Assembly (NCBI GenBank): GCA_963747695.1
Contig: CAVVFV010000010.1
Span: 5,618-69,617, forward strand
Direction: 5' to 3'
Length of the DNA stretch: 64,000 nucleotides
Origin: Candidatus Falkowbacteria bacterium
GTDB taxonomy: Bacteria; Patescibacteriota; Patescibacteriia; Patescibacteriales; WJLG01
How positions within the stretch are numbered: position 1 is the stretch's first letter; each line of letters opens with the position of its first letter. Of the stretch, positions 1-21,090 are shown piece by piece. The position numbers and the translations under genes are program-made. The notes below the pieces were generated by a model that was given only the letters and a program-made list of their open reading frames with translations, had not been told where the DNA came from and ran no database searches.

Positions 1-50
1 TTAGTCATAACATTTTTATTATTTTTTTATATATTAATAATTATAGCATA

Positions 51-560
51 AAAATCCTAAATTTAAAATCCTAAATCCTAAACAAATCCAAATGTCCAAA
101 ATTCAAAATTAAAAACCGTTGCGATTAAAGATTATTGCCGGTTATTTTTTTCTGACTTTGTAATAATCGCGCCAAATATTTTCATCAATTCCACTGATTC
201 GTTAATCAACCGTTGTTTCTCTGCTTTTAAACTTAAATTGCTTCCTTCCTCAATCAACTTAAGCCAATAACGGCTTTCCTTGGCTTCCTTGCGGCTTATT
301 TTTATCCTAAAAATAAAGTCTTTTTTGCTTAATGATTCATTGGCCTCGATGTAATTAGCTCCTACAGAGCCGGATGATCTGATTACCTGTTTTGCATCCT
401 CGATATTGGCAATGGAACTCGGAATCACTTTAATAAATTTTCTTACCCGGTCGGCAAATTCCAATGTCCGATTTTCCAGATCATAGTAATTCACCCTCGC
501 TGTTTTGAACATTAGAATTTTGAATTTGTTTAGGATTTAGGATTTCGTGCTTAGAATTTA
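51..560. repeat. class-I hairpin cassette: inverted-repeat arms enclosing four-helix-bundle ORF 132..512
   Basis: 66..87 'aaatcctaaatcctaaacaaat' is the exact reverse complement of 524..545. Simple-sequence flanks (aatcctaaa / tttaggatt) extend the arms. Confidence 0.85.
132..512 (-). CDS. four-helix-bundle protein (23S rRNA intervening-sequence protein / DGR-Avd-like family)
   Basis: 126-aa ATG ORF. Family-typical motifs 'SSGSVGANYIEA' and 'RKEAKESRYWL'. About two-thirds identical by eye to ORF 6556..6930. Enclosed by a perfect 22-nt inverted repeat (66..87 / 524..545). Confidence 0.85.
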   Translation of the reverse strand: MFKTARVNYYDLENRTLEFADRVRKFIKVIPSSIANIEDAKQVIRSSGSVGANYIEANESLSKKDFIFRIKISRKEAKESRYWLKLIEEGSNLSLKAEKQRLINESVELMKIFGAIITKSEKNNRQ

Positions 561-1286
561 TTTGACGATCATCTTCCCGACCGCGCCAAGTTGGCGGTGG
601 CCATCAAAATCGGAATAAAATGTATATTCGCCAAGCTGAGTCGGAGCATTGAAAGGAATCGCCAAAGTTTGCCGCGGTTCCAAGCCCATCGCCACGGCGG
701 CCAAGAGCGGGCTGTCGAATTTAAAAACTTCCACCGAACTGGCAGCGGTAACCGACAACACCACCGCTTGTCCGGCGCTGACCGTGAATTCCGCGGGAAC
801 AATCGAATCGGGATTTATCGTTAATTTTATGGCGCTCGCCGGCAGTTTGCTGGCATCGATCGGCGCCGACTGCAAAGGAGCGTTGGCATCACCGGCCCGC
901 GTGCCGTTGGCCGCCGTTTCCGATCCATCGCGCGTCAAAACTTCGCCGGTTTTTTCCGAGATCGGATTGCTTTGCGGCGCGACCACCACGGCTTGTTCCG
1001 GAGTCGTAGTACCGTCGCCGTTGTCCCGATTAACCGTAATTACTTTGGCAATATTTCCTGCCGCGGGAGTCGAGGCTAAATTTTTCGTTTCCTCAATCAA
1101 TTTTTGTGTGGCTTGTTTGCCCGCTTCAATGCTCGTGGCCGGGGCTTGGCCGGTCTGGGCCGCGGGCGGATTTTTCGTTATGGTCTTCGGCGCAGAAAAA
1201 TTTTTCCAAATAAACAAGCCGGCGATAAAAACAACCAAAACGCCGATGATGACAGACATGATGATGATGGATTTTTTTGTGAACAT
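558..1286 (-). CDS. membrane-anchored secreted protein, C-terminal cupredoxin-like beta-sandwich (tentative)
   Basis: 242-aa ATG ORF. N-terminal TM helix 'IIIMSVIIGVLVVFIAGLFIW', an Ala/Thr/Pro-rich linker, and a C-terminal tail 'EYTFYSDFDGHRQLGAVGKMIVK'. The fold call is by eye only. Confidence 0.6.
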   Translation of the reverse strand: MFTKKSIIIMSVIIGVLVVFIAGLFIWKNFSAPKTITKNPPAAQTGQAPATSIEAGKQATQKLIEETKNLASTPAAGNIAKVITVNRDNGDGTTTPEQAVVVAPQSNPISEKTGEVLTRDGSETAANGTRAGDANAPLQSAPIDASKLPASAIKLTINPDSIVPAEFTVSAGQAVVLSVTAASSVEVFKFDSPLLAAVAMGLEPRQTLAIPFNAPTQLGEYTFYSDFDGHRQLGAVGKMIVK

Positions 1287-1295
1287 GCGGATAAA

Positions 1296-1731
1296 ATTGT
1301 TATATTGTTATACTGCTATATTGTTAATTTATTATTCGTAAAATTTATTAGGTGATAAATTTCTTTCGGTAATTTCGCCAATTCACCAAATATGTACCTA
1401 TACTCATCTTCGTTCAACAACTTTCTCACTCGAGATTTTTCATTCCAATCCAATGATTCTTTCAGAGATCCGATTGAATAACGATAAAACTTAATTTTGT
1501 CTTTTTTACTGTATCGGCCGAAACCTTCGGCAATATTTGCGTAAATGGAATCGGCAGCGGTAACAAATTGCTCCCCCAAAGAACTTTTATTAAAATAATC
1601 CCATTTTACTATTTTGCTCCAAATATAATTGGATAAATTAAAACTTATTTTGTAAGCGTTCAAGTCGTTGAGCGACAAAAATTTCCCCTCCATAAAATTA
1701 TAACAATATAGCAATATGACAATATAACAAT
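1296..1731. repeat. class-II hairpin cassette: inverted-repeat arms enclosing four-helix-bundle ORF 1316..1693
   Basis: 1296..1326 'attgttatattgttatactgctatattgtta' against the reverse complement of 1701..1731 gives 29/31 matches. Confidence 0.85.
1316..1693 (-). CDS. four-helix-bundle protein, divergent member of the IVS/Avd-like family
   Basis: Motif 'ANIAEGFGRYSKKDKIKFYRYSIGSLKESLDW'. The track ORF starts at a TTG (1714) inside the inverted-repeat arm; the ATG at 1693 (MEGKFLS...) is preferred. Confidence 0.8.
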   Translation of the reverse strand: MEGKFLSLNDLNAYKISFNLSNYIWSKIVKWDYFNKSSLGEQFVTAADSIYANIAEGFGRYSKKDKIKFYRYSIGSLKESLDWNEKSRVRKLLNEDEYRYIFGELAKLPKEIYHLINFTNNKLTI

Positions 1732-4032
1732 CTATTTAAGATTAACCAGCGCCATCACCCAGCCTTTGCCCGTATCCGCTTCAAGGGCTTTGCCGATTGC
1801 CGTACCGACTTTGGGGTTGATCGCTTTCATCGCTTCGCCGGAAACTGCCGAAGTCGTCAGCAGATCGCCCGGTTGGATCTTTCCGCCGGTGGCGTTAACC
1901 AAAACTTTTACCACGCCGGTCAAAGCGACGGGCGCGACAAACTTTCCTTCGACTTGGCCGATGACCATGCCCGGCTTTTCAGAAATTACTCCGATCACCG
2001 TCTGATCATAATTTTTATCGCAGGCGCGAGCTGATTTATAGCCCTGGTCGTCCATCACCAAAACCGTACCGGCCGGATAATTTTTGTCAGTATAAAACTC
2101 TTCGGCCACGTCGCCCGAACCGGCCGTGATCTGACCGGCAACTAACAGGTCGCCGGACTTGGTTACTCTTAATACATTAGTCGTGGTTGAGCTCGCCACG
2201 TCAAAAATATCGCTGATACCGGCGGCACCGGCTACCGTTAATTTGGCTGTTGCCGCAGTTGTTCCAACGCCGACGTTACCGGATATATAAGCGTTGCCGG
2301 CGCCGTAATTTGCTCCGGCGGCATTATAACCGACCAACAAAGAAGCGGCAGTTGAAACCTGGAAAGGATGAGTGGCGTCGCCCACGTATCTTATGCCATA
2401 TCCTTCAATGAATTTAGTGATGGCAAAAGTGCCGCTTTCAAATCCCAGCCCGGCTCCGGCAAGACTAATACCGATTGGCCCGTTTACGGTGAGAGTTTCG
2501 GCCGGATTGGTGGATCCGATGCCGACGCTGCCGGAGCCATAAGCTCCGCCGCCATCTAAAATGATGTTATCGTTTTGTTTGATAACAAAATCATAATGAG
2601 AAGTTGCCCCGCTATAAATTGACAGGTCATTAGTGCCAAGAACGGCAGAAGCGATTAAAGCGTAATAGAACGAGCCCTCCTTAGCCAAGTCAAACTCCCC
2701 CCCGCTGGTTCCGCCAGCCCTAATCACCGGCTGCGCTCCGCCGCTCACATGTAATGTTGCCATCGGGTTGGTCGTCCCAATGCCGACGTTGCCGCCGCTT
2801 AATATTGTAACTCTGGTAGTATCGTTAGTTCCCAGTTGCAGCGGATATGCCCCCGATTGATTCATCACAAAGGCATATGGCAATCCGCCGTTTGTTGTAA
2901 ACGCTGTTCCAGCGCTATTTTCAATACCAAAATACGCACCGGGAGTATTTGAAAAACTAAGGAAAGCGGCATTGGTAGCAGTAGTAGAGTGCAAATGTAT
3001 CCGCGCCGTTGCCCCTTCAACCTGTAAAGGAAACAAAGGGTTGGTCGTCCCAATGCCGACGTTGCCGCCGTTCTGAACTATTAAACGGGTAGTTCCAATA
3101 CCGCTGGCAACTGACATAAAATTAAATCCATTGCCATCTTCCCCTAAAAGATAGCCGGTATTGTCGTAAGTCCTGTTCAGTAATATAGCAGGCCAATATT
3201 GTGCCGTTAATTTCAAATTATTAGAAAAACCCTGATTGGTAAAATTATCTGCACTGGATATTATTTCTAATGCGCCGCCGGGATTGGTCGTCCCGATGCC
3301 TACGCCGTTTTTGTTTAAATTAAGTATTGATGAATAAGTCGTTCCGCCATTGATAATATCATATTGCCAACCGATCGTTCCGTTAACTGGATTATTTCCA
3401 TGGAGCTGCAAATAATAATTATTGGGTAAATCAGTTTCGTCCCGCCAAATTTGTCCGGTAACATAGCCATCAACTTCCAATTTAGCGCCAGGATTGGTCG
3501 TCCCAATGCCGACGTTGCCGGTGTTCATATTCCAAATATTTCCCCCCAATGTTCCGCTCCAAAATTTGGAAGATGAAGCCGCCCAGTCGACGTAATATTT
3601 GGAAGCGGCTTCATTGTTATTGATCGGGATGGTCGCCAATCCCACGACCCGATTGCCATCGGCGTCAATGACGTTGACGTTCGGGGCGGACGGACTGCTT
3701 ACCAATAAACTGGCGGCGCCCAGCGAGGAAGAAGCAATGGCTACCTTACCGTTATAAACGAAAAAATTAGATACGATTGACGGCGAAGTGGTACCGAGCT
3801 TCAAAGTCCCGTACTTGGTCTGATCGATCGGTAAAGCAGTGGATCCGGTGAAAATCGGCGGCGTAACATTGCCGCCAGTCGGACTGGCGGTCGGATTGGA
3901 CCAGTCAGCTAAGCCATAAAGCGCGTAAATAAAAACCCCCAACACGACAAAGGCGCCGAGAGCAAAGCCTAAACTCGAATCTTTTAAAGAATTTTGTATT
4001 TTAGTAAAATTGTCTTTTTGGGAAAACTGCAT
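1732..4032 (-). CDS. secreted fibre-like repeat protein (six GIGTTNP-type repeats; phage fibre/appendage-like C-terminal domain, tentative)
   Basis: 766 aa with an N-terminal TM anchor. Six spaced copies of G-[IV]-G-[TS]-T-x-[PA]...L-x-V. The DNA unit 'ggttggtcgtcccaatgccgacgttgcc' recurs near 2766, 3039, 3281 and 3492. The C-terminal 'GDVAEEFYTD...VIGVISEKPGMVIG' resembles autoproteolytic intramolecular-chaperone domains of phage fibres (recollection, unverified). Confidence 0.7.
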   Translation of the reverse strand: MQFSQKDNFTKIQNSLKDSSLGFALGAFVVLGVFIYALYGLADWSNPTASPTGGNVTPPIFTGSTALPIDQTKYGTLKLGTTSPSIVSNFFVYNGKVAIASSSLGAASLLVSSPSAPNVNVIDADGNRVVGLATIPINNNEAASKYYVDWAASSSKFWSGTLGGNIWNMNTGNVGIGTTNPGAKLEVDGYVTGQIWRDETDLPNNYYLQLHGNNPVNGTIGWQYDIINGGTTYSSILNLNKNGVGIGTTNPGGALEIISSADNFTNQGFSNNLKLTAQYWPAILLNRTYDNTGYLLGEDGNGFNFMSVASGIGTTRLIVQNGGNVGIGTTNPLFPLQVEGATARIHLHSTTATNAAFLSFSNTPGAYFGIENSAGTAFTTNGGLPYAFVMNQSGAYPLQLGTNDTTRVTILSGGNVGIGTTNPMATLHVSGGAQPVIRAGGTSGGEFDLAKEGSFYYALIASAVLGTNDLSIYSGATSHYDFVIKQNDNIILDGGGAYGSGSVGIGSTNPAETLTVNGPIGISLAGAGLGFESGTFAITKFIEGYGIRYVGDATHPFQVSTAASLLVGYNAAGANYGAGNAYISGNVGVGTTAATAKLTVAGAAGISDIFDVASSTTTNVLRVTKSGDLLVAGQITAGSGDVAEEFYTDKNYPAGTVLVMDDQGYKSARACDKNYDQTVIGVISEKPGMVIGQVEGKFVAPVALTGVVKVLVNATGGKIQPGDLLTTSAVSGEAMKAINPKVGTAIGKALEADTGKGWVMALVNLK

Positions 4033-4080
4033 AAAAATTTTATAGTCCCCGCTTGACGAAACGTTTTTAGCTCCGGCAGA

Positions 4081-4189
4081 TTTTTTAATTTTGTAATTTT
4101 TAAATTTTTAAAATAAATCCTAATTTTTAATTTTTAAAAATTAAGCCTTAAAAATTCTTTCAAAAATTTAAAAATTAAAAATTAATTTG
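4081..4189. repeat. AT-rich inverted-repeat element, family 'aaaattaaaaatt', copy 1
   Basis: The core at 4115..4169 is ~95% identical to 13366..13421. The outer arms 4081..4109 / 4162..4186 are complementary. Confidence 0.75.
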
Positions 4190-4197
4190 TGGGCTTT

Positions 4198-4554
4198 TCA
4201 AAATAATCCCTCGAAATACGGGACAAATATTATCAATCCGACGGCGATGGCCAAGATTGCGGCGATCATCACGGCCGCGGCCATGATATCTTTGGCGGCC
4301 ATCACCGACTCGTGGATCCTCGGCTTAAGCACGTCGGCCAGCCGTTCAATCGCGCTGTTGACCGTTTCCATCAGGATCACCAAGGCGATGCAGATCAAAA
4401 TGGCGCACCATTGCCAAGGCTGGATCTTAAAAACAAAGCCTAAAGCTATTACAATTATAGCAACTAATGAGTGAATCTGTAAATTTTGCTCCTCGCGAAA
4501 AATTTTGAACAAGCCGCGGAAAGCATAGCCGAAACTCTTGAATAAACGAATCAT
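4198..4554 (-). CDS. dgkA: diacylglycerol kinase / undecaprenol kinase family protein
   Basis: 118 aa with three TM segments. Motif 'EEQNLQIH...ETVNSAIERLAD...AKDIMAAAV' is typical of prokaryotic DAGK. Confidence 0.85.
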   Translation of the reverse strand: MIRLFKSFGYAFRGLFKIFREEQNLQIHSLVAIIVIALGFVFKIQPWQWCAILICIALVILMETVNSAIERLADVLKPRIHESVMAAKDIMAAAVMIAAILAIAVGLIIFVPYFEGLF

Positions 4555-4660
4555 TGTTATATTGTCATACTGTTATATTGCTATATTGCTGCGCAACGAA
4601 ATAAATATTTATTGTAATTTAAGACGTCACTTAACAATATAACAATATAGCAATATAACC
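4553..4660. repeat. 'empty' class-II hairpin between ybeY and dgkA
   Basis: Built from the same caatataacaa/ttgttatattg units as the arms at 1296..1731. A 17-bp perfect stem joins 4572..4588 and 4643..4659. The loop begins 'gcgcaacgaaataaata'. Confidence 0.75.
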
Positions 4661-4664
4661 TTTT

Positions 4665-5081
4665 TTACTTCTTACCTTTTTTTTTCAACTTACCAATAAA
4701 TTTTTCTCCTAAATTAATCATGTGTAGTCGGTCTTTTTCCGTCCGGTCATCGTAGCCGCCGAGGTGCAATAGGCCGTGAACCAGGATAAAGATCAACTCA
4801 TTTTGAAAGGCGTTGCCATTTTCTTTGGCTTGCCGGCGGATTTGCGCGGGATCGATGATAATTTCCCCAAAAAAATCTTCATCTCCACCAAAAGACAACA
4901 CGTCGGTCGGACAATTTTTCTTCCGGTAGCGGAAATTCAGCTGCTTCATCTTGGCATCGCCGATAAAGGCAATCGAAACATCTTGCTTGGACAAATTCCG
5001 GCTCCGCAAAAATTTTTCCGCCACCCCTTTTATCAACCGTTCGTTAATCTTAAATTTAGTCGTGTTATTAATCTCAATCAT
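4665..5081 (-). CDS. ybeY: rRNA maturation endoribonuclease YbeY
   Basis: 138 aa with the zinc motif 'HGLLHLGGYDD'. Confidence 0.9.
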   Translation of the reverse strand: MIEINNTTKFKINERLIKGVAEKFLRSRNLSKQDVSIAFIGDAKMKQLNFRYRKKNCPTDVLSFGGDEDFFGEIIIDPAQIRRQAKENGNAFQNELIFILVHGLLHLGGYDDRTEKDRLHMINLGEKFIGKLKKKGKK

Positions 5082-5087
5082 TTAAAT

Positions 5088-5220
5088 AAATCTGAAATAC
5101 AAAATCCAAAAATAAATTCAAAATCCGAATAACAAAAATTCTAATCGTTTTGAATTTTGAATTTTTAACATTTGAATTTGTTTAGGATTTCGTGCTTAGA
5201 ATTTCGGATTTGATTAGAAT
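5088..5220. repeat. 'empty' class-I hairpin (no ORF in loop) upstream of ybeY
   Basis: 5174..5211 'gaatttgtttaggatttcgtgcttagaatttcggattt' matches the leader motif at 522..559 and 6940..6978. Nested pairings are 5136..5144/5196..5204 (9 bp) and 5119..5129/5203..5212. Confidence 0.7.
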
Positions 5221-5222
5221 AA

Positions 5223-5284
5223 TGTCGGGAATAGACCCTCCCCGTCTCCGCCAGGGGCAGAGCCACCCCTCCCGGGGAGGGGAC
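5223..5284. repeat. GC-rich REP-like hairpin element (intergenic)
   Basis: 'ccaggggcagagccacccctcccggggaggggac' is related to the reverse complement of the 60357.. terminus ('ccaggggctgtccacccctctcaagagggg'). Confidence 0.65.
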
Positions 5285-5288
5285 GTTT

Positions 5289-6413
5289 TTATTTCAGCGT
5301 AAAGCTATTAATCATCATCAAGAAAATATGGTAATAGGCGGGATTGCTGTCTGCTGCCGGCACATAAGAAATGGTATAGATATTATTTTTCCCCGCGTCA
5401 GCCAGATAAAATATTTCTCGATTCTGATGAAAGACGCCTTGCCAGCCGTTCTTGGCGACGACGGCGGCATCGGTGACCGGAGTATCCGGGAACTGGCTGT
5501 TGTACCAATCTTTGATCGACAAGTTGCCGGTATCGGGCATCGCGACGATCTCGATGAAAGAATTATCAGCGGCCGAAAAAATGATCGACTGGCCGCTGTT
5601 CAAATCCTGCGCCTGCCAAATTTTCGGATAATCAATGCTGAATTTGGCGGCCGTGTCCTGATAAACCGCGATATGCGGATTGTCGGTGATCTTGCCCGCG
5701 CCAGCCGGATTGTAAAGACTCAAGACTTCCGCCCCATCGGTATAACCGTCGCCGTCCGTATCGGCTTTATTCGGATCAGTGCCGAAAATAGCTTCTTCGG
5801 CGTCGGAAAGGCCGTCATGATCGGAATCGACTACGTTGGCAGCCAAAGGCAAACCGTCATGGGCTAAAGTGGAAGAGGCCGAAAAAGCGGTGGTGGAGGT
5901 GGCAACCGGCGGAGTGGAAGTGGCTATGATTAGCGCGGTGGAAGAAGAAATAATCGTGGAAGTGGCCGGAGTCGTTGGCGCCGGGGCCGTCGGCGCGCTC
6001 GTGGTCGCCACTATCGGAGGAGTAGTCGAACCGACTGGCGCTGAAACCGGCGGAGGCGTAACCGACGGTTGAGTCACTGTTGGCGGAACAGATACGGCCG
6101 GCGTTTTAACCGCCGGTTTCGGATTGATTAAAAATATATAAGCCAAATAGACAGCCGCGATCATTACCAAAACCCCGACAATCATAATCACTGCTCCGAT
6201 CACGGTGGTTTTTTTATCCCCCGTCTTCGAGCTGATCTTAAACTTGCGCGGCATAGTGCGGATTTTGATATTTTTTTCAATCTCTTCGTCGAGATTGACC
6301 TTGGGCGCGCTGGCAGCCGCCGCCGAAAAAATCCGGCCGCTGTCTTTTTCGTCTGCCGGCGTATTATCCTCCGGCTCCATTATCTGCCCTTTAAATCCAG
6401 ACATAAATTTCAT
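5289..6413 (-). CDS. single-pass membrane protein with Pro/Thr/Ser-rich stalk, TSP3-like Ca-binding repeats and a C-terminal globular domain
   Basis: 374 aa. TM helix 'VIGAVIMIVGVLVMIAAVYLAYIFLI'. Repeat 'DSDHDGLSDAEEAIFGTDPNKADTDGDGYTDGAEV'. Function unknown. Confidence 0.7.
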   Translation of the reverse strand: MKFMSGFKGQIMEPEDNTPADEKDSGRIFSAAAASAPKVNLDEEIEKNIKIRTMPRKFKISSKTGDKKTTVIGAVIMIVGVLVMIAAVYLAYIFLINPKPAVKTPAVSVPPTVTQPSVTPPPVSAPVGSTTPPIVATTSAPTAPAPTTPATSTIISSSTALIIATSTPPVATSTTAFSASSTLAHDGLPLAANVVDSDHDGLSDAEEAIFGTDPNKADTDGDGYTDGAEVLSLYNPAGAGKITDNPHIAVYQDTAAKFSIDYPKIWQAQDLNSGQSIIFSAADNSFIEIVAMPDTGNLSIKDWYNSQFPDTPVTDAAVVAKNGWQGVFHQNREIFYLADAGKNNIYTISYVPAADSNPAYYHIFLMMINSFTLK

Positions 6414-6480
6414 GATTAAATGTATAATGGTAAAACCTATCTTTCCCCTGAAAAATCCTGAAGGGAAATTAAATAATACT

Positions 6481-6978
6481 TTAAATCCGAAGCTAGAAAT
6501 CCGAAATCCGAAACAAATCTAAAATCTCAAATCAGTAAAAACTAAAATTTTAATTTTATTCCTCTTGGGTTGAATTTCTTAAAATAGCTCCGAAAATTTT
6601 CATTAATTCCGTTGCCTCATTGGCTAAAAAATTTCTTTCCCGCGCCGCATTCTCGTAATTTCCGCAATCAATTAAAATTAGCCAGTATCTGCTTTCTTTG
6701 GCCTCCTTGCGACAAATCTTTATTCTTAAGATAAAATCTTTTTTACTTAAAAAATTATTAGCTTCGATATAATTTGCACCCACCGAACCGGACGATCTTG
6801 CCAATTGTTTCGCATCTTCAATATTTGATGTTGAAAACGGAATAACTTTTAGAAAATTTCTAACTTTGGCTGCGAAATTAAGTGTTCTCTCTTCCAAATC
6901 ATAATAATTAATTCTCACTGTTTTGGTCATTGGAATTTTAAATTTGTTTCAGATTTCGTGCTTCGGATTTCGGATTTA
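6481..6978. repeat. class-I hairpin cassette enclosing four-helix-bundle ORF 6556..6930
   Basis: 6497..6512 pairs perfectly (16 bp) with 6962..6977, and 6511..6518 pairs with 6942..6949. The right arm carries the conserved 'aatttgttt.ag.atttcgtgctt.g.attt' motif. Confidence 0.8.
6556..6930 (-). CDS. four-helix-bundle protein (IVS/Avd-like family)
   Basis: 124-aa ATG ORF. 'SSGSVGANYIEANNFLSKKDFILRIKICRKEAKESRYWL'. Bracketed by inverted repeats 6481..6528 / 6932..6978. Confidence 0.85.
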   Translation of the reverse strand: MTKTVRINYYDLEERTLNFAAKVRNFLKVIPFSTSNIEDAKQLARSSGSVGANYIEANNFLSKKDFILRIKICRKEAKESRYWLILIDCGNYENAARERNFLANEATELMKIFGAILRNSTQEE

Positions 6979-7039
6979 TGACATGACTAAAAAAGATTAA
7001 ATTTTCAGATTGATATCGTGCTTTTTTGCTTTCTAATTC

Positions 7040-7867
7040 TTACTTCAGCTTTCCCGGACCGAGCGGATTGTAACCATTCTGGACTTCCGAGCCGTCAGTG
7101 TAGCCGTCGCCGTCGGTGTCCGGATTATTCGGGTCGGTGTGATAGACTTTCACTTCCTGATAATCGGTTAAGCCGTCATTATCCGAATCCGCTTTGTTAG
7201 GATTGGTATGATAGATATTGATCTCATCATAATCGGACAGGCCGTCCCCGTCAGAGTCAAGCGTCGAAGCCGAAGAAGACGCGGAAGATGAAGCGACTAC
7301 CGGAGAAACCGGCGACGTTGTGGCGATTGGTATGACCGGCGTAACGGTCGGCGGGGTCGAGACGACCGGACTCTCTGGAGTCGTCACCGCCGGAGCGGCC
7401 GGTTGTGAAACATTATTCTGATTGACGGGTGATGCCGGAGCGACATTATTGATCACCATCGTTTGGCCGGATTGTTTGGTGAAGATGCCGCTCAAATCGG
7501 AAAATTTGCTTGCCCAGCTCGACGGGTTAGTGATCTCCACTCCCATAAATTTTCCGGCGATGAAAATTGCCAGACCGATAATAAGCAAAATTATTACGAT
7601 CGTTATGACCGCTCCCCAGACTTTGCCGGAAGATTTTTCCCTCGGCACGGACGGAATTTTTGCGGCGGGCGAAGCGGCGCCCGGCATTTTCGGCGCGGCG
7701 CCGATATCCTTGACGCCGGCAAACATATCTTCAACCGGCGCGGTTTTTGGAGCCGGAAAAGATCCGGCCGCCGGCATTGCCGGAGCATTACTCCCCGCTC
7801 CCGGAGCCGAAGCCGTGGTTTTACCGGTTAAATTTTGCCCCTGATTTTGATCTAAATTTTCAAACAT
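7040..7867 (-). CDS. single-pass membrane protein with TSP3-like Ca-binding repeats
   Basis: 275 aa. TM helix 'VWGAVITIVIILLIIGLAIFIAG'. Three DxDxDGxxDxxE repeats ('DSDGDGLSDYDE', 'DSDNDGLTDYQE', 'DTDGDGYTDGSE'). Same architecture as 5289..6413. Confidence 0.7.
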   Translation of the reverse strand: MFENLDQNQGQNLTGKTTASAPGAGSNAPAMPAAGSFPAPKTAPVEDMFAGVKDIGAAPKMPGAASPAAKIPSVPREKSSGKVWGAVITIVIILLIIGLAIFIAGKFMGVEITNPSSWASKFSDLSGIFTKQSGQTMVINNVAPASPVNQNNVSQPAAPAVTTPESPVVSTPPTVTPVIPIATTSPVSPVVASSSASSSASTLDSDGDGLSDYDEINIYHTNPNKADSDNDGLTDYQEVKVYHTDPNNPDTDGDGYTDGSEVQNGYNPLGPGKLK

Positions 7868-8008
7868 AACGATTTATTTAGCATGCGACATATTAAATGC
7901 GACATGTAATATTAATATTTTTTATTTTATTCACTAAGATCAGGGAACATAGAACATGGATCAAAGATCATTTTTTATTGTTCTTTGCTCTATGATCTAT
8001 GCTCTTCG

Positions 8009-11000
8009 CTATTGGCTCTGGCAGGTTCCATTGGTACCGCAGGACGAACCGGCGGCTTTGCCATTACAGGCGTTTTTAGCGGCAGCCGGATCGGAACAGA
8101 CAATATTCTTACCGAAAAAATAAGATTCTTTCAGCAAGTCTTGGCAAGTTCCGCCCGCGCCGCAAGCCGCGCCGACCGGCAAACCGGTGCAGGTACCCGG
8201 AGCGTTAGTATCAGTACAATCCAAATTCGAACCAAGCGAAGTGACCGGATTGGTTACCGTGGGCAGATCGGCAGCGCTGCCGCCATTGTCGCGGCAATAA
8301 TACAATTCATAATTCATCGGATTGCAGACGGAATTCAGCGGATTCGTCGGGGACTTGACGCAGCCGCCGCCCAAAACCGCATCCAAAGTATCAAACCAGG
8401 GGCGCCAAGGAATTCCTTGCGACTGCAGATTATCCGGCCAGGTGGAAGAACACATAAAGACATAAACATCAGCCGTGCTTGAGGCGTTAGGATTTGGCAC
8501 GCTTTGATTGACATCCGTGAAAGTTCGAGTGTCGGTCAGATAAACTTTGGCTAAAAGCTGGGCTTGGGCATCGACAACTCCCGCTACCGCCCGAACCAAT
8601 TGCTCCGGAGCAACATAATCAAAAGGCTGAATAATGCCATTGTTGTTATTATTAACGAAATTGACCGCCAGGGTATTGCCGTTCTGCCAACTCCAAGTCC
8701 AGGAATATCCCTTTACCGGATGAAGGACCTGATCGTCGGCGGACAAGGCGGCGGCGGTGAAAGCTTTATCGTTGTCGGCAGCCGTATCAAAAGTCTTCGA
8801 GGTAGGATCGTTGTCGTTTTCATTCAAATCACTGTTGGAGTGATTGATCAGATAAGAATCGGGGGAAATAGAAACGTGGTCAATGCCGCAAATGCCGTCA
8901 TCTTCGCCGCTGGCTTGTTTGGTCTTGAACCACCAAAGGTAAGAATTAGTGAAAGCGACACCGTCAAATTGAGAGTAATTGGCCACCGGACTAGCGGAAC
9001 CAAAAACATTCAAGCCGATATCCCAGTAACTTAATACGGCGCCGGTAGTGGTGGACAGATCATGCACACCCCTGACCACGGCATAATAAACAGTGTCCGG
9101 TTCAAGGACGATCGAAGGTTGGAAATTAAGGATCGTCTTATTATCCCCTTCCTCGGCGCTGGAAACATTTCCCGGCACGGAGCAATAAAGATGAGAATTA
9201 TCCGGCACATTCGCGAGGCTCTGCTTACCAAACAGCCAGGTTAAATGTTCGCGCGCATCAGCCAGCAATTTGTCGTAAGTTTTCTCAAAAATATTTTTAT
9301 TCTGCAGGCTCACGTTCGCCGTTCCGATCTGGGTCGTGCCCGAGGCGCACTTGGCGTCGCCCGCCACTTCCTCGATTAAAATAAAATCATCATTAAAACT
9401 TCCGGTGTCCATCTTTTGATTGAAAGACACGCCCAAGTCGGCGTTGGTGCAAACATTGGTTACGCCGTTATCAGGCGTGATGGTGGAAACGCTGGGACGG
9501 GCGCGGCAGCAGGAATCCATGCCGCAGCCTTGATAATCCGGTGTTGCTCCCGGCGGAACGCAGCTGTCATTGCCTTGGCAGCCGCAGCAAAGTCCGCGGC
9601 TATCGCCCGAGCAAGGAGTCTGATTCTTTCGGCAGGACAAAGCGGAATTCAAACCCAAATCATGACAAGCGTCGTAAGTGGAGGCATCGGTTTTATCCGC
9701 TCCGATTTTAGTCGGATCGCAGCAGCAGAAGCCGCAACCGGCCGCGGCCGGTTTATCCGGAGCTTTCGCTCCGTTGTCGAGGAGACAACTGAAAGGACCG
9801 GAGCAGATGCCTAAATTGCAAGTATCAGGCTGGTTCTGATTTTGGCAGCTGACGCCCAAGAGAGAATTGGAAGATCCGCATTTATCATTGCACTCGGCCG
9901 AGGAAGGGAAGAATGGGCTGGCCGGCAAACTGGTCGGAGTCGAACAGCCGGCGGCATTATCGCCGCACTGAAAATAACCGCAAAAAGTACTGCCTTGATA
10001 ATTCACGATCGGTAATATATCGCCCAATGTATTGTCATAAGATAAATTCTTACAATTGCCGCTTTGCCGATCAACGCAGCAAGCGCCGGAATGATCGCGG
10101 CAGGAAGCGGCATCGGACATCGCCGCGCAATCGCGGCAAACTCCGTCGGGAAAATTAGTAGTGTCAGAGGTATCGCAGAATTGCCCGGTATGCGCGGCGC
10201 AACTGCAGGCCGCATCGGAACCGGCAACGTCTACCTGGCCGGCATTCGGACCGGAAGAGAAAAGTTTTTTGCAGCCGCCGCAAGAACCGTAAGTCGTCGG
10301 ATTGGCCTTGCCGACATCGCTGCCGCAAGTCCCCTCGCATTTCAAGGGAGCACAACAATCCTGGTTGGCATTGGCTTTCTGACAGCAGCAAGGACAAGTA
10401 TTCCCTGGAGCTTTTTCGCATTGTCCGCTGACGCAAGTTGAACCGCCGGCGCAGACCTCACTCGCCGAACCGCAAACGCCTTGATGCGAAGCGGGCTGGC
10501 TCGGATCGGCCAAACAGTCTTGCTTGGCATTGAGGCAGATCGAGCACGGGGTCGCGGTGTCGACACAAACCGGGATGCCCTGAACATCAATGCCGCGAAG
10601 ATTGAATTTTGCCGAACAGCGGGGACCGGCCTTATACATATAATAGTAGAAGAGATTATTGCTCACATCTTTATAAGCGCCGCAATAAGTATCATGAGAG
10701 TTGCCCAAATCATCGACGGTGGTGCTGGCTAAATCGCAAACCTCGCTATGGCCGCCGGTATTTTCCACACATCTGTTGAGTTGAGAACTATAAACGCAGG
10801 TGCCGGAGTCACAACCGGGCTGATCCTGGCAATGCGAATCATCGCAATTAACTGTCGGCGAAAAAGGCTGCAAAACAGGACTGCCGGTTAAAGGCGAACA
10901 CTCGCCCGGAACATTGGGACAAGTCAGTCCCAAAGTGCAGGCGCCGGTCGCGTTACTTATTTCCTCACAGCTTCCCGGAGCAGTCGGGGAAGCAATCGGC

Positions 11001-13333
11001 GTAACATTGGTGCTGAATTTGAATTCGTAAACCGAGGTCGAAGCGGTCGCCGAACAATCAGTGGTTAGGTTAGCCACGCAAGTGCCGGCTTTGGCGGTAT
11101 CAGCCCCGCAGCAATGTTCGTCCGCGCCGCAAGCCGTATCCTGTTTCGGCGCGTCAAGACAACTGCCGACGGAAAAATTCAAGCCATTGCCTTCCAAAGC
11201 GTTGGCGGGCGAGGAAGCATTTTTGACTACGGTCACCGGACCGGTGGCGGCCGACGACGGTACAGCCGTGGTGATCGTATTCGGCGTGTTATCGCCATCC
11301 CAGGTAAGCTTGGCAGCGCCGCTCACTGGTTGATTATGAAAAAATCTGACCAGACTGTTGGATTCATCAAAGGTGGAAAAATATTCTCCCCAGAGATTAA
11401 CTTGCGTACCGACAACTCCGATTACCGGGCTGATCTTGCAGAGCGACGGCTTCAACGGCAAGCTCGTGTCAACTTTGAAACTTTGCGGCGTCGCGCCCGC
11501 CGAGGTCAGCGTCTGGCCGTTTTCCAATTTGACCGTTAAAATATCATTAAAATTCGAAAACTTTGGATCAGTACTGACTGGCACCTTAACAATAATCTGC
11601 TGATCGCTCCAAGTACTATCTTTGCAGACAGGTGGGAAATCGAGATCGGCTAGCGTACCATTAGTGACGGTGCCGAAATAGACCTGGCTCTTACCCTGGA
11701 TGTTGCCGAAGCCGTTGCCGCGGATGGTAACGTATTGTCCGATATTGCCGGTAACCGGTTCAAAGGATGAAATAAAAGCGCCCAAGGCCGGCGTAGAACT
11801 GTTGGTAAAAGCGAGATAGTTGCTATTCTGCTGGCTGTCGGAATTATAGACAAAGGTGGTGGTCTGGCCCGGATTGAAATTAGGAACGATCGCCGAGCCG
11901 GCATTGCTGCCGAAAGCCGAATTGACCCCCATAATCGAGGCGCCGTAACTGCCGAAATCGGCCGCGGCCGCCGAGCTGAAATTGACGCCATTATAAAAAA
12001 CGCTGCTGCCCAGTTTGCCTTCGGGCGTTACCTGGCAAAGGCCGGGCCGGGTTATCGAATTCACGACAAAATCTTTTATTTTCGGTCCGCGCGAATCATT
12101 GGTTAAATCGGTTTTGTCATCAATGGTGGTTACCCTGATCGGTCCGTCTTTGGCGCCTACCGGAACGACGATGATGATCTGATTGGCAGCCCAGGACGAA
12201 ACGCAATTGCGATTGGCGGTTTTAGGAAGATCGCCGGCCACGAAACCGCCGGCGCCGTTGGAAAATTCCACTGTGCCGGTAGCATCGCCGAAATATTGTC
12301 CGCCGAGAGAAATAATATTACCCACGGCGCCGTTGGGCGCGGCAGTATCACAAGTCGAACCCGGACAATCAGTATCTTTAGTACAAATCTTATTATGGTC
12401 GCTATCGCAAAAACCGCCGACCGGACTCACCCAATCGATGACCGGATATTCCTCGCAAGTGCAAGCTTTAGCGCCGGTGGTTTCGCAGGTCAAATTATTG
12501 GAGCAAAGATTACTGTCCGGCCGGCAAACTCCGGCCGTGGTAGTGGCATTACAGGGAGCGCCGACTCCGACCGAAGGAGCGCATTGGCAAGTGCCAAAAT
12601 CGCAAGCCGAATTATTATAGCAATTATCAATCGCTTGGCAGCCGGGCGCCGAATTCACATCACAGGGTCCGCCGTCGTTCGCTTGCGGCTGGCAAGTACA
12701 AGGGTCGGCCGCGTTAGGATCGCAAAAATGGGTGCTATCGCAAGCGCCGTTATCTTCACATACTCCGGGCGTAGTCGCGCCATTGCATGAAGTTCCGGTG
12801 CCGCCGGCCGTCGGGCACAAGCAAGTAGACATATCGCAAGAACCGACATCGCAGACGCCGCCGCAGGCGCCCAACGCCGCGGTGCCGCCGCACGGCTGGC
12901 CGGCTCCGCCCGTTCCGGGTAAGATCGAACCGCCGCCGCCGGTAGTAGTGCCGGTGGTGCTGACGCCGGTCGCATTTAAAATTGAGTTAAGGATAAAGGT
13001 GGCGATGGCGAAAGCCGAAAGGATGATCAGTAAACCGATCACTGCCGAAACCAGAACTTTTTTGGCCGTGGTGATCTTTTCTTCGTCGCCGGAGGCCGTC
13101 ATCCATAAAAATCCGCCGTAGATTATCAAGCCGATGGCGATCACGCCTAAAAATCCCAAAGCGATCCGGATAATATTGCCGACGATCAGCCGCGGATCGG
13201 TCGCCACCAATCCGGTGGCATTGCCATAGCTTAAGCCCAAATCCGCCCCCTGGGCCAACGCCAAACCGGCAAAGGCGAAAAGGCCAGCTAAAAGAGTTAG
13301 GGCTATAATTATTTTTTTTGATGGTTCAGACAT
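8009..13333 (-). CDS. giant cysteine-rich surface protein with N-terminal TrbC/VirB2-like 'pilin' module and IPT/TIG- and SbsA-like Ig domains
   Basis: 1,774 aa from the ATG at 13333 (the track start at 13339 is GTG). N-terminus 'YGNATGL..TDPRLI...YGGFLWMTASGDEEKITTAKKVL..IGLLIILSAFAIATFILN'. Two Cys-dense blocks at about 12440..12900 and 9500..11160. Ig-like segments lie between them. Confidence 0.85.
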   Translation of the reverse strand: MSEPSKKIIIALTLLAGLFAFAGLALAQGADLGLSYGNATGLVATDPRLIVGNIIRIALGFLGVIAIGLIIYGGFLWMTASGDEEKITTAKKVLVSAVIGLLIILSAFAIATFILNSILNATGVSTTGTTTGGGGSILPGTGGAGQPCGGTAALGACGGVCDVGSCDMSTCLCPTAGGTGTSCNGATTPGVCEDNGACDSTHFCDPNAADPCTCQPQANDGGPCDVNSAPGCQAIDNCYNNSACDFGTCQCAPSVGVGAPCNATTTAGVCRPDSNLCSNNLTCETTGAKACTCEEYPVIDWVSPVGGFCDSDHNKICTKDTDCPGSTCDTAAPNGAVGNIISLGGQYFGDATGTVEFSNGAGGFVAGDLPKTANRNCVSSWAANQIIIVVPVGAKDGPIRVTTIDDKTDLTNDSRGPKIKDFVVNSITRPGLCQVTPEGKLGSSVFYNGVNFSSAAAADFGSYGASIMGVNSAFGSNAGSAIVPNFNPGQTTTFVYNSDSQQNSNYLAFTNSSTPALGAFISSFEPVTGNIGQYVTIRGNGFGNIQGKSQVYFGTVTNGTLADLDFPPVCKDSTWSDQQIIVKVPVSTDPKFSNFNDILTVKLENGQTLTSAGATPQSFKVDTSLPLKPSLCKISPVIGVVGTQVNLWGEYFSTFDESNSLVRFFHNQPVSGAAKLTWDGDNTPNTITTAVPSSAATGPVTVVKNASSPANALEGNGLNFSVGSCLDAPKQDTACGADEHCCGADTAKAGTCVANLTTDCSATASTSVYEFKFSTNVTPIASPTAPGSCEEISNATGACTLGLTCPNVPGECSPLTGSPVLQPFSPTVNCDDSHCQDQPGCDSGTCVYSSQLNRCVENTGGHSEVCDLASTTVDDLGNSHDTYCGAYKDVSNNLFYYYMYKAGPRCSAKFNLRGIDVQGIPVCVDTATPCSICLNAKQDCLADPSQPASHQGVCGSASEVCAGGSTCVSGQCEKAPGNTCPCCCQKANANQDCCAPLKCEGTCGSDVGKANPTTYGSCGGCKKLFSSGPNAGQVDVAGSDAACSCAAHTGQFCDTSDTTNFPDGVCRDCAAMSDAASCRDHSGACCVDRQSGNCKNLSYDNTLGDILPIVNYQGSTFCGYFQCGDNAAGCSTPTSLPASPFFPSSAECNDKCGSSNSLLGVSCQNQNQPDTCNLGICSGPFSCLLDNGAKAPDKPAAAGCGFCCCDPTKIGADKTDASTYDACHDLGLNSALSCRKNQTPCSGDSRGLCCGCQGNDSCVPPGATPDYQGCGMDSCCRARPSVSTITPDNGVTNVCTNADLGVSFNQKMDTGSFNDDFILIEEVAGDAKCASGTTQIGTANVSLQNKNIFEKTYDKLLADAREHLTWLFGKQSLANVPDNSHLYCSVPGNVSSAEEGDNKTILNFQPSIVLEPDTVYYAVVRGVHDLSTTTGAVLSYWDIGLNVFGSASPVANYSQFDGVAFTNSYLWWFKTKQASGEDDGICGIDHVSISPDSYLINHSNSDLNENDNDPTSKTFDTAADNDKAFTAAALSADDQVLHPVKGYSWTWSWQNGNTLAVNFVNNNNNGIIQPFDYVAPEQLVRAVAGVVDAQAQLLAKVYLTDTRTFTDVNQSVPNPNASSTADVYVFMCSSTWPDNLQSQGIPWRPWFDTLDAVLGGGCVKSPTNPLNSVCNPMNYELYYCRDNGGSAADLPTVTNPVTSLGSNLDCTDTNAPGTCTGLPVGAACGAGGTCQDLLKESYFFGKNIVCSDPAAAKNACNGKAAGSSCGTNGTCQSQ

Positions 13334-13342
13334 TGACACGCT

Positions 13343-13440
13343 TTATAATTTTTTAATTTTTAAAGAAATCCTAATTTTTAATTTTTTTAAAAATTAAGCC
13401 TTAAAAATTCTTTAAAAATTACAAAATTACAAAATTAAAT
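13343..13440. repeat. AT-rich inverted-repeat element, copy 2
   Basis: Shares its core with copy 1. Shares both termini with copy 3 ('ttataattttttaatttttaaa' and 'tttaaaaattacaaaatt'). Confidence 0.75.
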
Positions 13441-16400: not shown

Positions 16401-16518
16401 CGGTGGCATTGCCGTATTCCATGCCCAGGTTGATCTGCGCGGAAGCCAAATGAAAAACAAAAAACACTCCAACCAAAAGAGTTAGCGCGCTAATTATTTT
16501 TTTTGCGGACTTAGGCAT
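13447..16518 (-). CDS. large surface protein, paralog of 8009..13333 (same pilin-like N-terminal module)
   Basis: 1,023 aa from the ATG at 16518 ('MPKSAKKIISALTLL', which aligns with 'MSEPSKKIIIALTLL' of the neighbour). The track start at 16614 runs through the intergenic repeat. The first ~125 aa are about 80% identical by eye to the neighbour. SbsA-like Ig segments and a Cys-containing C-terminus follow. Confidence 0.85.
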   Translation of the reverse strand: MPKSAKKIISALTLLVGVFFVFHLASAQINLGMEYGNATGLGATDPRLIIGRIIQIFLGFLGVIALGLIVYGGFLWMTAAGNEEQIDRAKRTLVSAIIGLLIILSAFAIATFILNQLLGATGAGGGAGNNPSGPPGGGINGAGAIGECSVQNVYPVPNQMAVPRNTAIFITFKESVDAKTVCASVDASGNCAAGSTINTTNVQIYKSSDSGNPLIDTKVISSDNNKTFTFIPAQYLGSETDNVWYTVNLLGGITRTSDHSSAFSGSGCAGSLNWQFQVSNKIDLTPPQVVSSGVFPPPDNGRDNANLVFAARAVGSITVNAGICRKPPQYFVAATSSAAKTVSASPTPDADTTVNQNADLSAVIKVVVLPDGLTATATLIDGSNLGSAIFSGRTVFFTGKYPFSLTAHADVKAGDAWTVTITAARQADSLQAGSLVYTFVKKSTQDNEIAVGATAADTANNIAAALGKQTDITVAVSGAQVTVSAAAAGAAGNNINLSFNSPDNSGALSITNMKGGDDGSSTADPNVSTAGNQPDQPMNTVIQINFNEPILPSNVAGAATDASAIQVVNADPNAKSAGGGCAQAADCKSFTCSNKICAGSNEYLQGTFAIANLYQTVEFTSNVPCGVNGCGEPIYCLPPNSHLEVVIKAASLAHCDTNADCAAKNVNGKAYDQCINNICSENLGGNYAATAPEVRRYPAANIQAAPAGGPDGVTDAAFNSLDGDRNSFADGPAATYSDNPPIYSNNQSCQDNFSTIIQAVIAARIKQDKVLGEITGPDAGNYKYYTVGGCTALGATGCLNLMNKEMKDIGLPGAVKDSSGNLFIFDENENEPGYVACRQDAVSSATCGQVNIPTYYCANGDNFSWSFYVNDQMDISAPIVTSVSPAAGEVPKLSQDIKINFNKLMMASTLVTGSTVIDTGQGPVTHKNINLWNVADNPIGYWIQTETLFGGNAPIQTNAIIKHSDFGESSDYRAQAGSAVRDIHENCFKPSGDQSTCKNVSTTQPSCCYGVATSKLDANGDCP

Positions 16519-16520
16519 TA

Positions 16521-16713
16521 TCGTATTTCGTATTTCGTATTTCGTATTTTGACTGCCCAGCGATTTGCTCTTGAATTTTGGGCGTAAAAATACAAAAAAC
16601 GCCAGACGAATCATTGACTAATCCCCACTGTTGTTATTAAATTAGATTATACCATAAAATGCCAAGAGAATAAAATATACGAAATACCAAATACGAAATA
16701 CGATATACGAATT
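16521..16713. repeat. 'cgtatttcg/cgaaatacg' inverted simple repeats flanking the divergent promoter region
   Basis: Left arm 16521..16550 ((tcgtattt)n). Right arm 16672..16713 (its imperfect complement), abutting the rel ATG. Confidence 0.7.
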
Positions 16714-18192: not shown

Positions 18193-18195
18193 ATG

Positions 18196-18229
18196 TAAAA
18201 AAATACCGCCACTTGAGGCGGTATTTTTA
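18196..18229. terminator. bidirectional intrinsic terminator between convergent rel and rpsU
   Basis: Stem aaataccgcc/ggcggtattt with A and T tracts on both sides. Confidence 0.75.
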
Positions 18230-18235
18230 ATATCT

Positions 18236-18475
18236 TTATCTGCGATAAGTTGTTTCTTCTTCCGGGAGTTTGCCGATCTTGCGCAAGTAGTTCTTCTGTT
18301 TCCGGAGCTCTAAACTTTTCAGAGCGTATCTTTTCGTTTTAAGTTTGCTTTTCTTGGGCACCAAAACGCGCTTCTCGCGGGCGATATTCAAAGTTTTGCT
18401 GTTACGCAAACCTTTGTTAAAACGCCGCAAAAAACTCTCGAAACTTTCTCCTTTCTTTCTTTTAAATTCTGTCAT
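18236..18475 (-). CDS. rpsU: 30S ribosomal protein S21
   Basis: 79 aa, basic. 'GESFESFLRRFNKGLRNS'. A GGAGGTG Shine-Dalgarno lies upstream. Confidence 0.85.
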   Translation of the reverse strand: MTEFKRKKGESFESFLRRFNKGLRNSKTLNIAREKRVLVPKKSKLKTKRYALKSLELRKQKNYLRKIGKLPEEETTYRR

Positions 18476-18496
18476 AGTGAAACACCTCCAATCAAT

Positions 18497-21039: not shown

Positions 21040-21090
21040 GCCATTTATCAACAGCGGCAAACAACCAGAGACAAAGTAATTAAAAAAAAT

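Follow-up and report, generated by a model that had tools for sequence, protein, structure and literature searches.

Intervening sequences (IVSs) that carry an open reading frame (ORF) interrupt the 23S rRNA genes of Coxiella burnetii, Leptospira, Xanthomonas and Brucella, classically at helix 25 or 45; as a class, IVSs lie in 23S or 16S rRNA genes and are removed from the primary transcript by RNase III with no religation. To our knowledge, the role of the S23p/PF05635 proteins they encode and the origin and spread of the IVSs themselves have been open questions since the early 1990s, and the IVS field has looked almost solely at rRNA. The Coxiella 23S IVS comprises 428 nucleotides (nt) with a 28-bp terminal stem, which RNase III cuts in the middle, and shows tandem heptamers and a weak Shine-Dalgarno (SD) motif upstream of the S23p ATG (PMC4990558). 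PF05635 ORFs also occur in rRNA insertions of the candidate phyla radiation (PMC11270868), PF05635 genes have been noticed inside cas loci (PMC3936711), and the family was described as homologous to Avd (PMC10053308), the accessory protein of diversity-generating retroelements (DGRs). Isolated PF05635 genes outside rRNA are already widely annotated. Here, we describe such a gene in a 64,000-nt stretch of DNA from Candidatus Falkowbacteria bacterium (assembly GCA_963747695.1, contig CAVVFV010000010.1, positions 5,618 to 69,617; hereafter the window). It lies within a unit bounded by complementary arms, referred to as cassette 3, which is probably an IVS-type gene cassette outside rRNA, promoterless and inserted between two co-transcribed genes for TSP3 surface proteins.

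In its layout, cassette 3 resembles the 23S rRNA IVSs. Both measure ~430-500 nt, and in both, complementary arms form a long stem around an ORF of the S23p/PF05635 family, which is read in the sense of the host transcript, is directly preceded by tandem heptamers and has a poor SD sequence or none. Unlike the IVSs, cassette 3 sits between protein-coding cistrons, without the defining rRNA location. Neither the window, where an Rfam scan returned four tRNAs only, nor 10 related loci provide an rRNA context, and with TSP3 protein genes as its flanks, cassette 3 was rejected as an rRNA-located IVS. Further differences are the heptamer itself (AAAUYCG in the cassette, GACAGAU in Coxiella) and the state of the ORF, which is intact and strongly conserved here whereas the Coxiella ORF is decaying. 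A search of the full-text literature found the work on rRNA IVSs, the link to Avd and the sightings in cas loci, and no description of hairpin-bounded PF05635 operon cassettes, of conserved hairpin arms, of a strict intercistronic sense placement, of solo derivatives or of parallel DUF559 cassettes.

Cassette 3, its protein and its arms

The ORF of cassette 3 is a bona fide PF05635/TIGR02436 protein gene, with a score of 45.3 bits for Pfam PF05635 (cut-off 33.8) and 67.9 bits for TIGR02436 (cut-off 24). The window contains exactly three PF05635 ORFs (132..512, 1316..1693 and 6556..6930), all of which exceed the curated cut-offs both for '23S rRNA-intervening sequence protein' (PF05635) and for 'four helix bundle protein' (TIGR02436). 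A preliminary description of the window had called the cassette the third of its kind, which agrees with this count, and had put the identity of its ORF to ORF 132..512 at about two-thirds. The measured value is 68% (83/122 residues) in a gap-free alignment of the 124 amino acids (aa) with the 126 aa encoded by ORF 132..512, also on the minus strand (E 7e-58). Residues R45-S49-N53-E56 (RSSGSVGANYIE) form the motif RxxxSxxxNxxE, which is known as a family motif (PMC3936711), and S49, N53 and E56 are invariant in two alignments (A2 and A3).

The AlphaFold2 model of the protein monomer (predicted local distance difference test 90.8) consists of four helices at residues 9-29, 34-59, 63-86 and 93-122. 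Its best Foldseek matches are BT_0352 (2rld, template modelling (TM) score 0.70-0.84), Xcc0516 (2gsc) and Avd (4dwl, TMq 0.69, TMt 0.76), and the Avd chains of 8ub7 are matched as well. Sequence profiles reach 2rld and 2gsc, and each of these two entries is a homopentamer with five chains. The modelled four-helix bundle has the same fold as Avd (PDB 4DWL, 8UB7), whereas the sequence identity amounts to ~12% and the cassette gene has a hairpin-bounded layout. A reverse transcriptase domain was absent from the 37 window ORFs scanned, a set that leaves out one ORF of 6563 aa and the small ORFs, and template and variable repeats were not searched for; as no reverse transcriptase lies nearby among the scanned ORFs, the identity of the protein as a DGR Avd was rejected. 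Membership in a defence system was likewise rejected, since PADLOC gave no match.

The arms around the ORF are made of tandem heptamers. Positions 6497..6512 (AAATCCGAAATCCGAA) are the exact reverse complement of 6962..6977, and a repeat search also pairs 6497-6515 with 6959-6977 (95%) and 6483-6506 with 6947-6970 (88%). Several registers pair because of the heptamer repeats. The perfect 16-mer pairing, on which the preliminary description had relied, is real, but its register is slipped by 14 nt from the one conserved in the family, 6483..6516 with 6944..6977, which reaches inward nearly to the ATG; the inner stem runs on through 6517..6552. Folding of 6470..6990 as sense (minus-strand) RNA gave a stem of ~45 pairs closing the entire ORF, with a free energy of -123.3 kcal/mol compared to -101.6 +/- 5.5 for shuffled sequences (z -4.0, 0/100 shuffles as good). 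Similarly, the stem score of 77 lies above the shuffled mean of 41 and maximum of 53. For the three window cassettes, the z values are -4.0, -4.5 and -6.0, again with 0/100 shuffles as good in each case. The enclosure of the ORF by pairing arms was therefore correctly recognised, as exact reverse complements occur and the fold beats all shuffles.

A leader motif shared with 522..559 had also been proposed. The pattern as literally typed matches nothing, even with 3 mismatches allowed, and was dropped in favour of the heptamer consensus. Its core is sound: ATTTCGTGCTT occurs exactly at 542, 5187 and 6953, with AATTTGTTT upstream of the core at all three sites. The copy at 522..559 has one additional AGGATTT heptamer, and the third site (5170..5207), absent from the earlier account, belongs to an ORF-less hairpin of the same class. 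Rfam offered no model for the arms and nothing relevant in 1..8100 at E<=5; weak miRNA-like matches at 7937..8012 were rejected as chance matches to a generic hairpin.

The two host genes, TSP3-A upstream and TSP3-B downstream, both carry TSP3_bac repeats according to a domain scan. They share a layout of N-terminal region, transmembrane helix, Pro/Thr/Ser-rich linker and TSP3 repeats. Their description as genes of identical architecture is overstated, as only a stretch of 51 residues can be aligned (61% identity) and TSP3-B has an extra C-terminal domain of ~130 aa.

Table 1 Positions of cassette 3, its host genes and related elements in the window
Feature	Position	Strand	Description
Whole cassette 3	6482..6978	-	5' arm, ORF and 3' arm, ~497 nt; limits from stem alignment and minimum-free-energy fold
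5' arm of cassette 3 (transcript)	6944..6977	-	AAAUCCG AAAUCCG AAGCACG AAAUCUG AAACAA, five heptamers; from anchored alignment A1 and pair counts
A-rich leader of cassette 3, after the 5' arm	6931..6943	-	
PF05635/TIGR02436 four-helix-bundle ORF, 124 aa	6556..6930	-	Pfam, TIGR02436, AlphaFold2 model, Foldseek
3' arm of cassette 3 (transcript)	6483..6516	-	UUGUUU CGGAUUU CGGAUUU CUAGCUU CGGAUUU; pairs with 6944..6977
TSP3-A, upstream host gene, 275 aa	7040..7867	-	Stop codon 61 nt before the 5' arm
TSP3-B, downstream host gene, 374 aa	5289..6413	-	Start codon 68 nt after the 3' arm
Cassette 1	47..564	-	Class-A arms, CUAAAU/AUUUAG variant, around ORF 132..512; 5' arm and stop codon of gene 558..1286 overlap
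Cassette 2	1294..1733	-	PF05635 ORF (1316..1693 from ATG), class-B arms of TTGYYATA octamer repeats; z -6.0
Solo class-A hairpin, ORF-less	5083..5216	-	Keeps the leader and a CAAAUGUU start-codon remnant

Arm conservation and placement across phyla

What had escaped the preliminary description is the identity of cassette 3 as an IVS-type PF05635 element of a cross-phylum family. More than 8000 proteins scored as homologues; among the matches listed, they have a length of ~121 aa and are 60-72% identical at the amino acid level. At least 524 homologue loci were found among GTDB species representatives, and these cover at least 10 phyla, with hosts from the Patescibacteria, Desulfobacterota, Planctomycetota, Chloroflexota, Nitrospirota, Verrucomicrobiota, Acidobacteriota, WOR-3, Armatimonadota and Pseudomonadota. 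In addition, one 2.7-kb contig with a homologue was binned as a Methanophagales archaeon.

A scan of the flanks of the fetched loci revealed that the same class-A arms bracket the ORF in 58 elements. The arm consensus comprises five heptamers (AAATTCG AAGCACG AAATCCG AAATTCG AAACAAA) plus their complement. The upstream flank of the 58 elements reads AAATTCG AAGCACG AAATCCG AAATTCG AAACAAATTCAA ATG ACC GAA, and the downstream flank reads TAA.GTTTTGAACATTTG..ATTTGTTT CGGATTT CGATATT CGAATTT CGGATTT. For 42 class-A elements, an ungapped alignment anchored on AAACAA/TTGTTT (A1) was used to count pairs. In register, 82% of the cells are paired compared to 22-56% with the partner slid by 1-3 columns, and the pairing breaks off precisely with the outer AAAU/AUUU (AAAT/ATTT). 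A joint switch from G-C to U-A is seen in four columns, which hold the G of each CG, in 9-11 sequences each, and the covariation score of 0.159 (shuffled 0.102) was reached by 0/500 shuffles. At two columns, U.G is the commonest pair, within a UA/UG/CG series. Columns 17-19/58-60 form a conserved 3x3 internal loop. Both arm variants are present in the window, with cassette 3 representing the CG type and cassette 1 the CT type.

Two heptamers stand out in A1. AAGCACG is usually found on the 5' arm, where its repeat position is variable, and CGATATT usually forms the third repeat of the 3' arm; these marked heptamers are generally not opposite each other's complement. Marked heptamers and 3x3 loop could represent a candidate determinant of protein binding or cleavage specificity.

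The placement of the 58 class-A elements relative to their neighbours is narrowly defined. Co-orientation with the cassette holds for 53/53 upstream genes and for 51/56 downstream genes. The 5' arm starts at a median of ~4 nt past the upstream stop codon, often overlapping it, and the 3' arm ends at a median of ~18 nt ahead of the next start, the median element length being 475 nt. Among the loci checked, cassettes even part subunit genes of one complex, namely the large and small subunits of aconitase-family enzymes, the 2Fe-2S and molybdenum cofactor (molybdopterin) subunits of a xanthine-dehydrogenase-type enzyme, and two BPD_transp_2 ABC-transporter permeases. The aconitase-family (leuC/leuD-like) site is occupied in several Planctomycetota (L032, L056, L065, L062, L050 and L068, at ~4960..5440 each); for all of these except L032, the shared flanks were assigned by gene layout and flank sequence. 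It is filled in both Phycisphaerae and Pirellulales, with some copies being ~91% identical at the nucleotide level.

An SD-like 4-mer was found in only 4/58 leaders, whereas the neighbouring host genes visibly possess SD sequences, and the AUG is paired in the stem in 31/58 elements. Neither a promoter-like nor a terminator-like site was called in the cassette 3 arms, consensus promoter scans being uninformative here, and no U-tract follows its stem. The sense orientation, the tight intercistronic placement and the lack of a promoter-like site or SD sequence therefore imply read-through transcription from the host operon.

These data also bear on the simplest alternative, namely a small gene of the ordinary kind that possesses its own promoter as well as a terminator-like hairpin, the inverted repeats having arisen incidentally in intergenic DNA that is AT-rich and of low complexity. 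The intergenic regions of this genome are indeed AT-rich and many of them form hairpins, and the uninformative promoter scans would be compatible with such a gene. However, sequence, length and register of the arms are conserved although the genomes differ greatly in composition, none of the shuffles folds as well, the stem lacks both a U-tract and a terminator-like call, and the arms abut the neighbouring genes. Consequently, we consider this explanation extremely improbable.

Orthologous sites and neighbouring cassettes

The preliminary description had interpreted the locus as an insertion into the spacer between two tandem TSP3 paralogues and suggested a comparison of the orthologous gene pair in related genomes. 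This comparison revealed spacers without the cassette in three relatives (L082, L083 and the contig JGI 3300075153), which supports the proposed insertion (Table 2); a further locus, L001, is 100% identical to the window and hence uninformative. In L082, TSP3-B is 65% identical at the amino acid level and the synteny of a giant pilin-like protein, TSP3-A, TSP3-B, YbeY and DAGK is kept, while the TSP3 spacer contains neither a PF05635 ORF nor class-A arms. In the more distant L083, 13 nt separate a TSP3-A-like gene (228 aa) from a TSP3-B-like gene (345 aa), with no cassette in between, and within 6 kb of the distant TSP3 loci L083-L098 no PF05635 ORF was found. The JGI contig, whose cupredoxin-like protein is 59% identical to that of the window, has short gaps at all three window cassette sites.

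Table 2 Content of the intergenic sites in the window and in three relatives
Site	Window	L082	JGI 3300075153 contig	L162
TSP3-A/TSP3-B	Cassette 3 (class A)	~100-125 nt, no cassette	85-nt gap	Not covered
TSP3-B/YbeY	Solo class-A hairpin and DUF559-arm remnant	Class-B hairpin	82-nt gap	Not covered
YbeY/DAGK	Solo class-B hairpin	Class-B hairpin	93-nt gap	DUF559 gene
DAGK/large protein	Solo class-C hairpin	Not covered	79-nt gap	DUF559 gene
Large protein/cupredoxin-like	Cassette 2 (class-B arms)	Not covered	19-nt gap	PF05635 gene, class-C arms
After cupredoxin-like	Cassette 1 (class A)	Not covered	55-nt gap	Frameshifted class-A cassette

Other relatives show different contents at the same sites. 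In L162 (GCA_028707065.1), whose cupredoxin-like protein is 81% identical to that of the window, the class-A copy (6760..7250) is 75% identical at the nucleotide level to window cassette 3 and only 69% to cassette 1, which occupies this site in the window. It is a pseudogene, frameshifted by the loss of one base in the KKDF codons, and shows decay in progress. In L164 and L165, the place of cassette 1 next to the cupredoxin-like gene is taken by DUF559 cassettes. From these empty, swapped and decayed sites it follows that hairpin-bounded cassettes from at least two protein families have settled repeatedly in the spacers of this gene string, and the cassettes then appear to decay to solo hairpins. 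The solo hairpin at 5083..5216 looks like an internal-deletion derivative of a cassette, and ~13 solo class-A hairpins were identified in loci from other phyla.

In L082, one and the same C-terminal domain is found in both TSP3 genes, in support of an ancient tandem duplication. The extra ~115-aa C-terminal domain of the L082 TSP3-A suggested that the TSP3-A of the window was truncated by the cassette insertion. This idea was dropped, as L083 and the JGI contig have a short TSP3-A without a cassette, so the short form is not due to the cassette.

The turnover at these sites is relevant for a second alternative, in which hairpin and gene are a domesticated host module, that is, a conserved device for post-transcriptional processing or stability whose protein regulates the flanking operon, and which is mostly inherited vertically and lost in some lineages. 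The intact and highly conserved ORF, with the cross-phylum identities among the matches listed above, would be expected from such a module, as would the filled aconitase-family site across Phycisphaerae and Pirellulales and the absence of recent bursts. It is harder to reconcile with the patchy occupancy among the close relatives of the window genome, with alternative cassettes in the same spacers, with pseudogenised and ORF-less copies and with flanking operons that are functionally unrelated. Furthermore, nearest neighbours from different phyla reach 75-80% nucleotide identity (e.g. 79% between Nitrospirota and Aminicenantia), which fits transfer better than vertical descent. Altogether, a host module appears unlikely to us. 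Taken together, this cross-phylum identity and the nucleotide-level conservation of the non-coding arms led us to argue for horizontal spread.

Besides the class-A elements, several further hairpin classes were observed. Three long, very AT-rich ORF-less hairpins with AATTTTTAAA repeats (4080..4185, 13342..13439 and 19987..20113) match both arms of a 115-aa PF05635 cassette in L162 with 86-100% identity, which makes them solo derivatives of a third (class-C) cassette class. ORF-less hairpins with class-B octamer arms (TTGYYATA) and a shared loop TTGCGCAACGAAATAAATA were found at 4564..4659 and 21084..21192 in the window and at 3725..3816 and 4309..4410 in L082. The L082 copies are closer to window 21084..21192 (80-83%) than to the positionally orthologous copy (74%), and together these hairpins make up a dispersed repeat family.

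A second kind of cassette in the relatives contains a DUF559 gene (PF04480, restriction endonuclease-like) of ~127 aa between GC-rich arms, GTCCCCTCC..GGAGGGG..GACGGGGAGGGTCTATTCCCGACAT / GAATAGACCCTCCCCGTC. Such cassettes are located at 145..744 and 1101..1703 in L162 and at 353..733 and 2597..2974 in L164, where they fill spacers that in the window contain solo hairpins or PF05635 cassettes. The window retains only remnants matching the arms of the L162 DUF559 cassettes, at 5222..5284 and 60367..60492, one of them inside ORF 59569..60633, and a similar GC-rich piece lies in frame inside ybeY of L082 (4017..4088). With its putative nuclease gene, the DUF559 cassette could be a homing element.

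Of the remaining hairpins, a near-perfect one of ~45 bp, made of UCGUAUU heptamers, is located at 18193..18300 just upstream of a small S21-like ribosomal protein ORF (~18310..18550, minus strand). A half-copy of the repeat is found at 16615..16713, and no cassette ORF is associated with this class here. Another hairpin, between the giant pilin-like gene and TSP3-A (7937..8012 in the window, 1150..1230 in L082), is conserved in position and in part of its sequence. Two Cys-rich proteins of very large size (1776 and 1055 aa) are encoded directly upstream of the TSP3 genes on the minus strand (8009..13339 and 13447..16614), each with an N-terminal T4SS_pilin domain and Ig-like (Big_5, TIG) domains; they are probably part of a gene set associated with the surface or a pilus. 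On the same strand, one ORF of 6563 aa spans 24741..44432.

Expression, mobility and significance of the cassettes

In our best reading, cassette 3 is a selfish or domesticated IVS-type cassette that is transcribed by read-through. It would be transcribed along with the TSP3 operon. Its arms pair in a single conserved register around the leader, and in roughly every second member of the family around the AUG as well, so that the element folds away. Since the arms enclose the element, the upstream stop codon and the downstream start codon would be brought near each other. Based on the rRNA IVSs of Coxiella, Salmonella and Leptospira and on the intercistronic hairpins of phage T7, RNase III would probably then cut the stem and separate the host cistrons. 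By the same analogy, this cut would free a short-leadered, A-rich mRNA that may be translated without an SD sequence. Like its solved relatives, the protein itself would assemble into a pentameric barrel that binds nucleic acids, and it may target the heptamer arms of its own cassette. As a pattern, the unit is gained, lost and replaced at intergenic sites, decays to ORF-less hairpins and crosses phylum boundaries.

In the early mRNA of phage T7, RNase III cuts intercistronic hairpins and thereby separates the messages. Both the T7 sites and the cassettes are long imperfect hairpins with an internal loop between the cistrons of a polycistronic transcript, whereas the T7 sites contain no gene in the loop and are not dispersed across genomes.

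Several observations weigh against this reading. Cleavage by RNase III is proposed by analogy, and the stem is no clean substrate for this enzyme, given that the 3x3 internal loop is conserved family-wide and that several heptamers are mismatched at their middle positions. In A1, the two marked heptamers interrupt the consensus stem pairing. The comparison of 169 G.U with 130 A.C oppositions (p 0.03) indicates a mild bias towards sense-strand RNA; this strand test is too weak to serve as an arbiter between RNA and DNA structure and leaves room for a role of the arms at the DNA level. Neither a consistent target-site duplication, in the bases just outside the arms of 43 elements, nor an insertion signature was seen, and the window contains no mobility enzyme. 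At the TSP3 spacer, a target-site signature is undefinable because the L082 spacers are too diverged for the junctions to align. Copies within the same genome are only 71-76% identical at the nucleotide level, no closer than cross-genome pairs, so that there is no sign of recent transposition, and recent intragenomic copying was rejected. The taxonomic breadth and some of the cross-phylum assignments depend on bins of metagenome-assembled genomes, and the archaeal match is confined to its short contig. Finally, the same-site occupancy in Planctomycetota suggests long vertical retention, perhaps with a benefit for the host as opposed to pure selfishness.

A further alternative is a DNA-level mobile element. 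Here, a transposase or recombinase encoded elsewhere would recognise the arms, either as terminal inverted repeats or as a hairpin or cruciform in the DNA. Otherwise, the arms would provide portable homology through which RecA mediates exchange into pre-existing solo hairpins. The solo hairpins themselves would be non-autonomous copies similar to miniature inverted-repeat transposable elements (MITEs), and the RNA structure would be incidental. The sharp outer boundary of the inverted-repeat ends, the ORF-less derivatives with the same arms in many phyla and at 5083..5216, the different cassettes at the same intergenic site in related genomes, the nucleotide-level conservation of the arms across phyla and the weakness of the G.U bias are all in agreement with this view. 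However, DNA transposons usually insert both ways, whereas all 53 scored elements lie in sense to the upstream gene, a bias that selection for expression could mimic. In addition, no target-site duplication was seen, the window contains no transposase, same-genome copies are diverged, and the UA/UG/CG series with U.G as the commonest pair at two columns is typical of RNA helices. We therefore regard a DNA-level element as possible and rather unlikely.

The comparison with known mobile elements follows the same lines. As in MITEs and palindromes of the repetitive extragenic palindromic (REP) type, solo hairpins share their arms with ORF-bearing units and are scattered in intergenic DNA. Unlike those, the cassettes have no known cognate transposase or REP-associated tyrosine transposase (RAYT), no target-site duplication was seen around them, and the 'autonomous' partner that would correspond to that of a MITE encodes a 124-aa helical bundle and no enzyme of a known mobility class. 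A conventional transposon with terminal inverted repeats was rejected, given the co-orientation with the upstream gene and the absence of a transposase in the window. An integron gene cassette, which has a single attC site at the 3' end of a promoterless ORF, was rejected as well: here, the ORF lies between two mutually pairing arms, no integrase lies nearby, and the surveyed cassettes are single and located between housekeeping genes, compared to the arrays of integrons. For the IVS-type cassettes as we read them, recombination through the conserved arms into existing solo hairpins would be a plausible route of spread.

A broader and, in our view, quite doubtful extension would be that the rRNA IVSs are simply the best-known special case of a far larger cross-phylum class of promoterless cassettes bounded by RNA hairpins, which may colonise any well-transcribed unit. 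In this scenario, an Avd-like pentamer would bind the five heptamers of its own arm, one subunit per repeat as in TRAP, and thereby control RNase III processing or mediate copying and insertion, which would amount to a mechanism of mobility or maintenance without a known enzyme class. The Avd of DGRs would have been recruited from this family, and the DUF559 cassettes with their GC-rich arms would constitute a second branch.

Altogether, the finding of an IVS-like architecture between ordinary cistrons turns an rRNA curiosity into a defined and searchable element family. This cassette family explains the isolated "four helix bundle proteins" annotated inside operons and cas loci of thousands of genomes, and it is a candidate source of the DGR accessory protein Avd.

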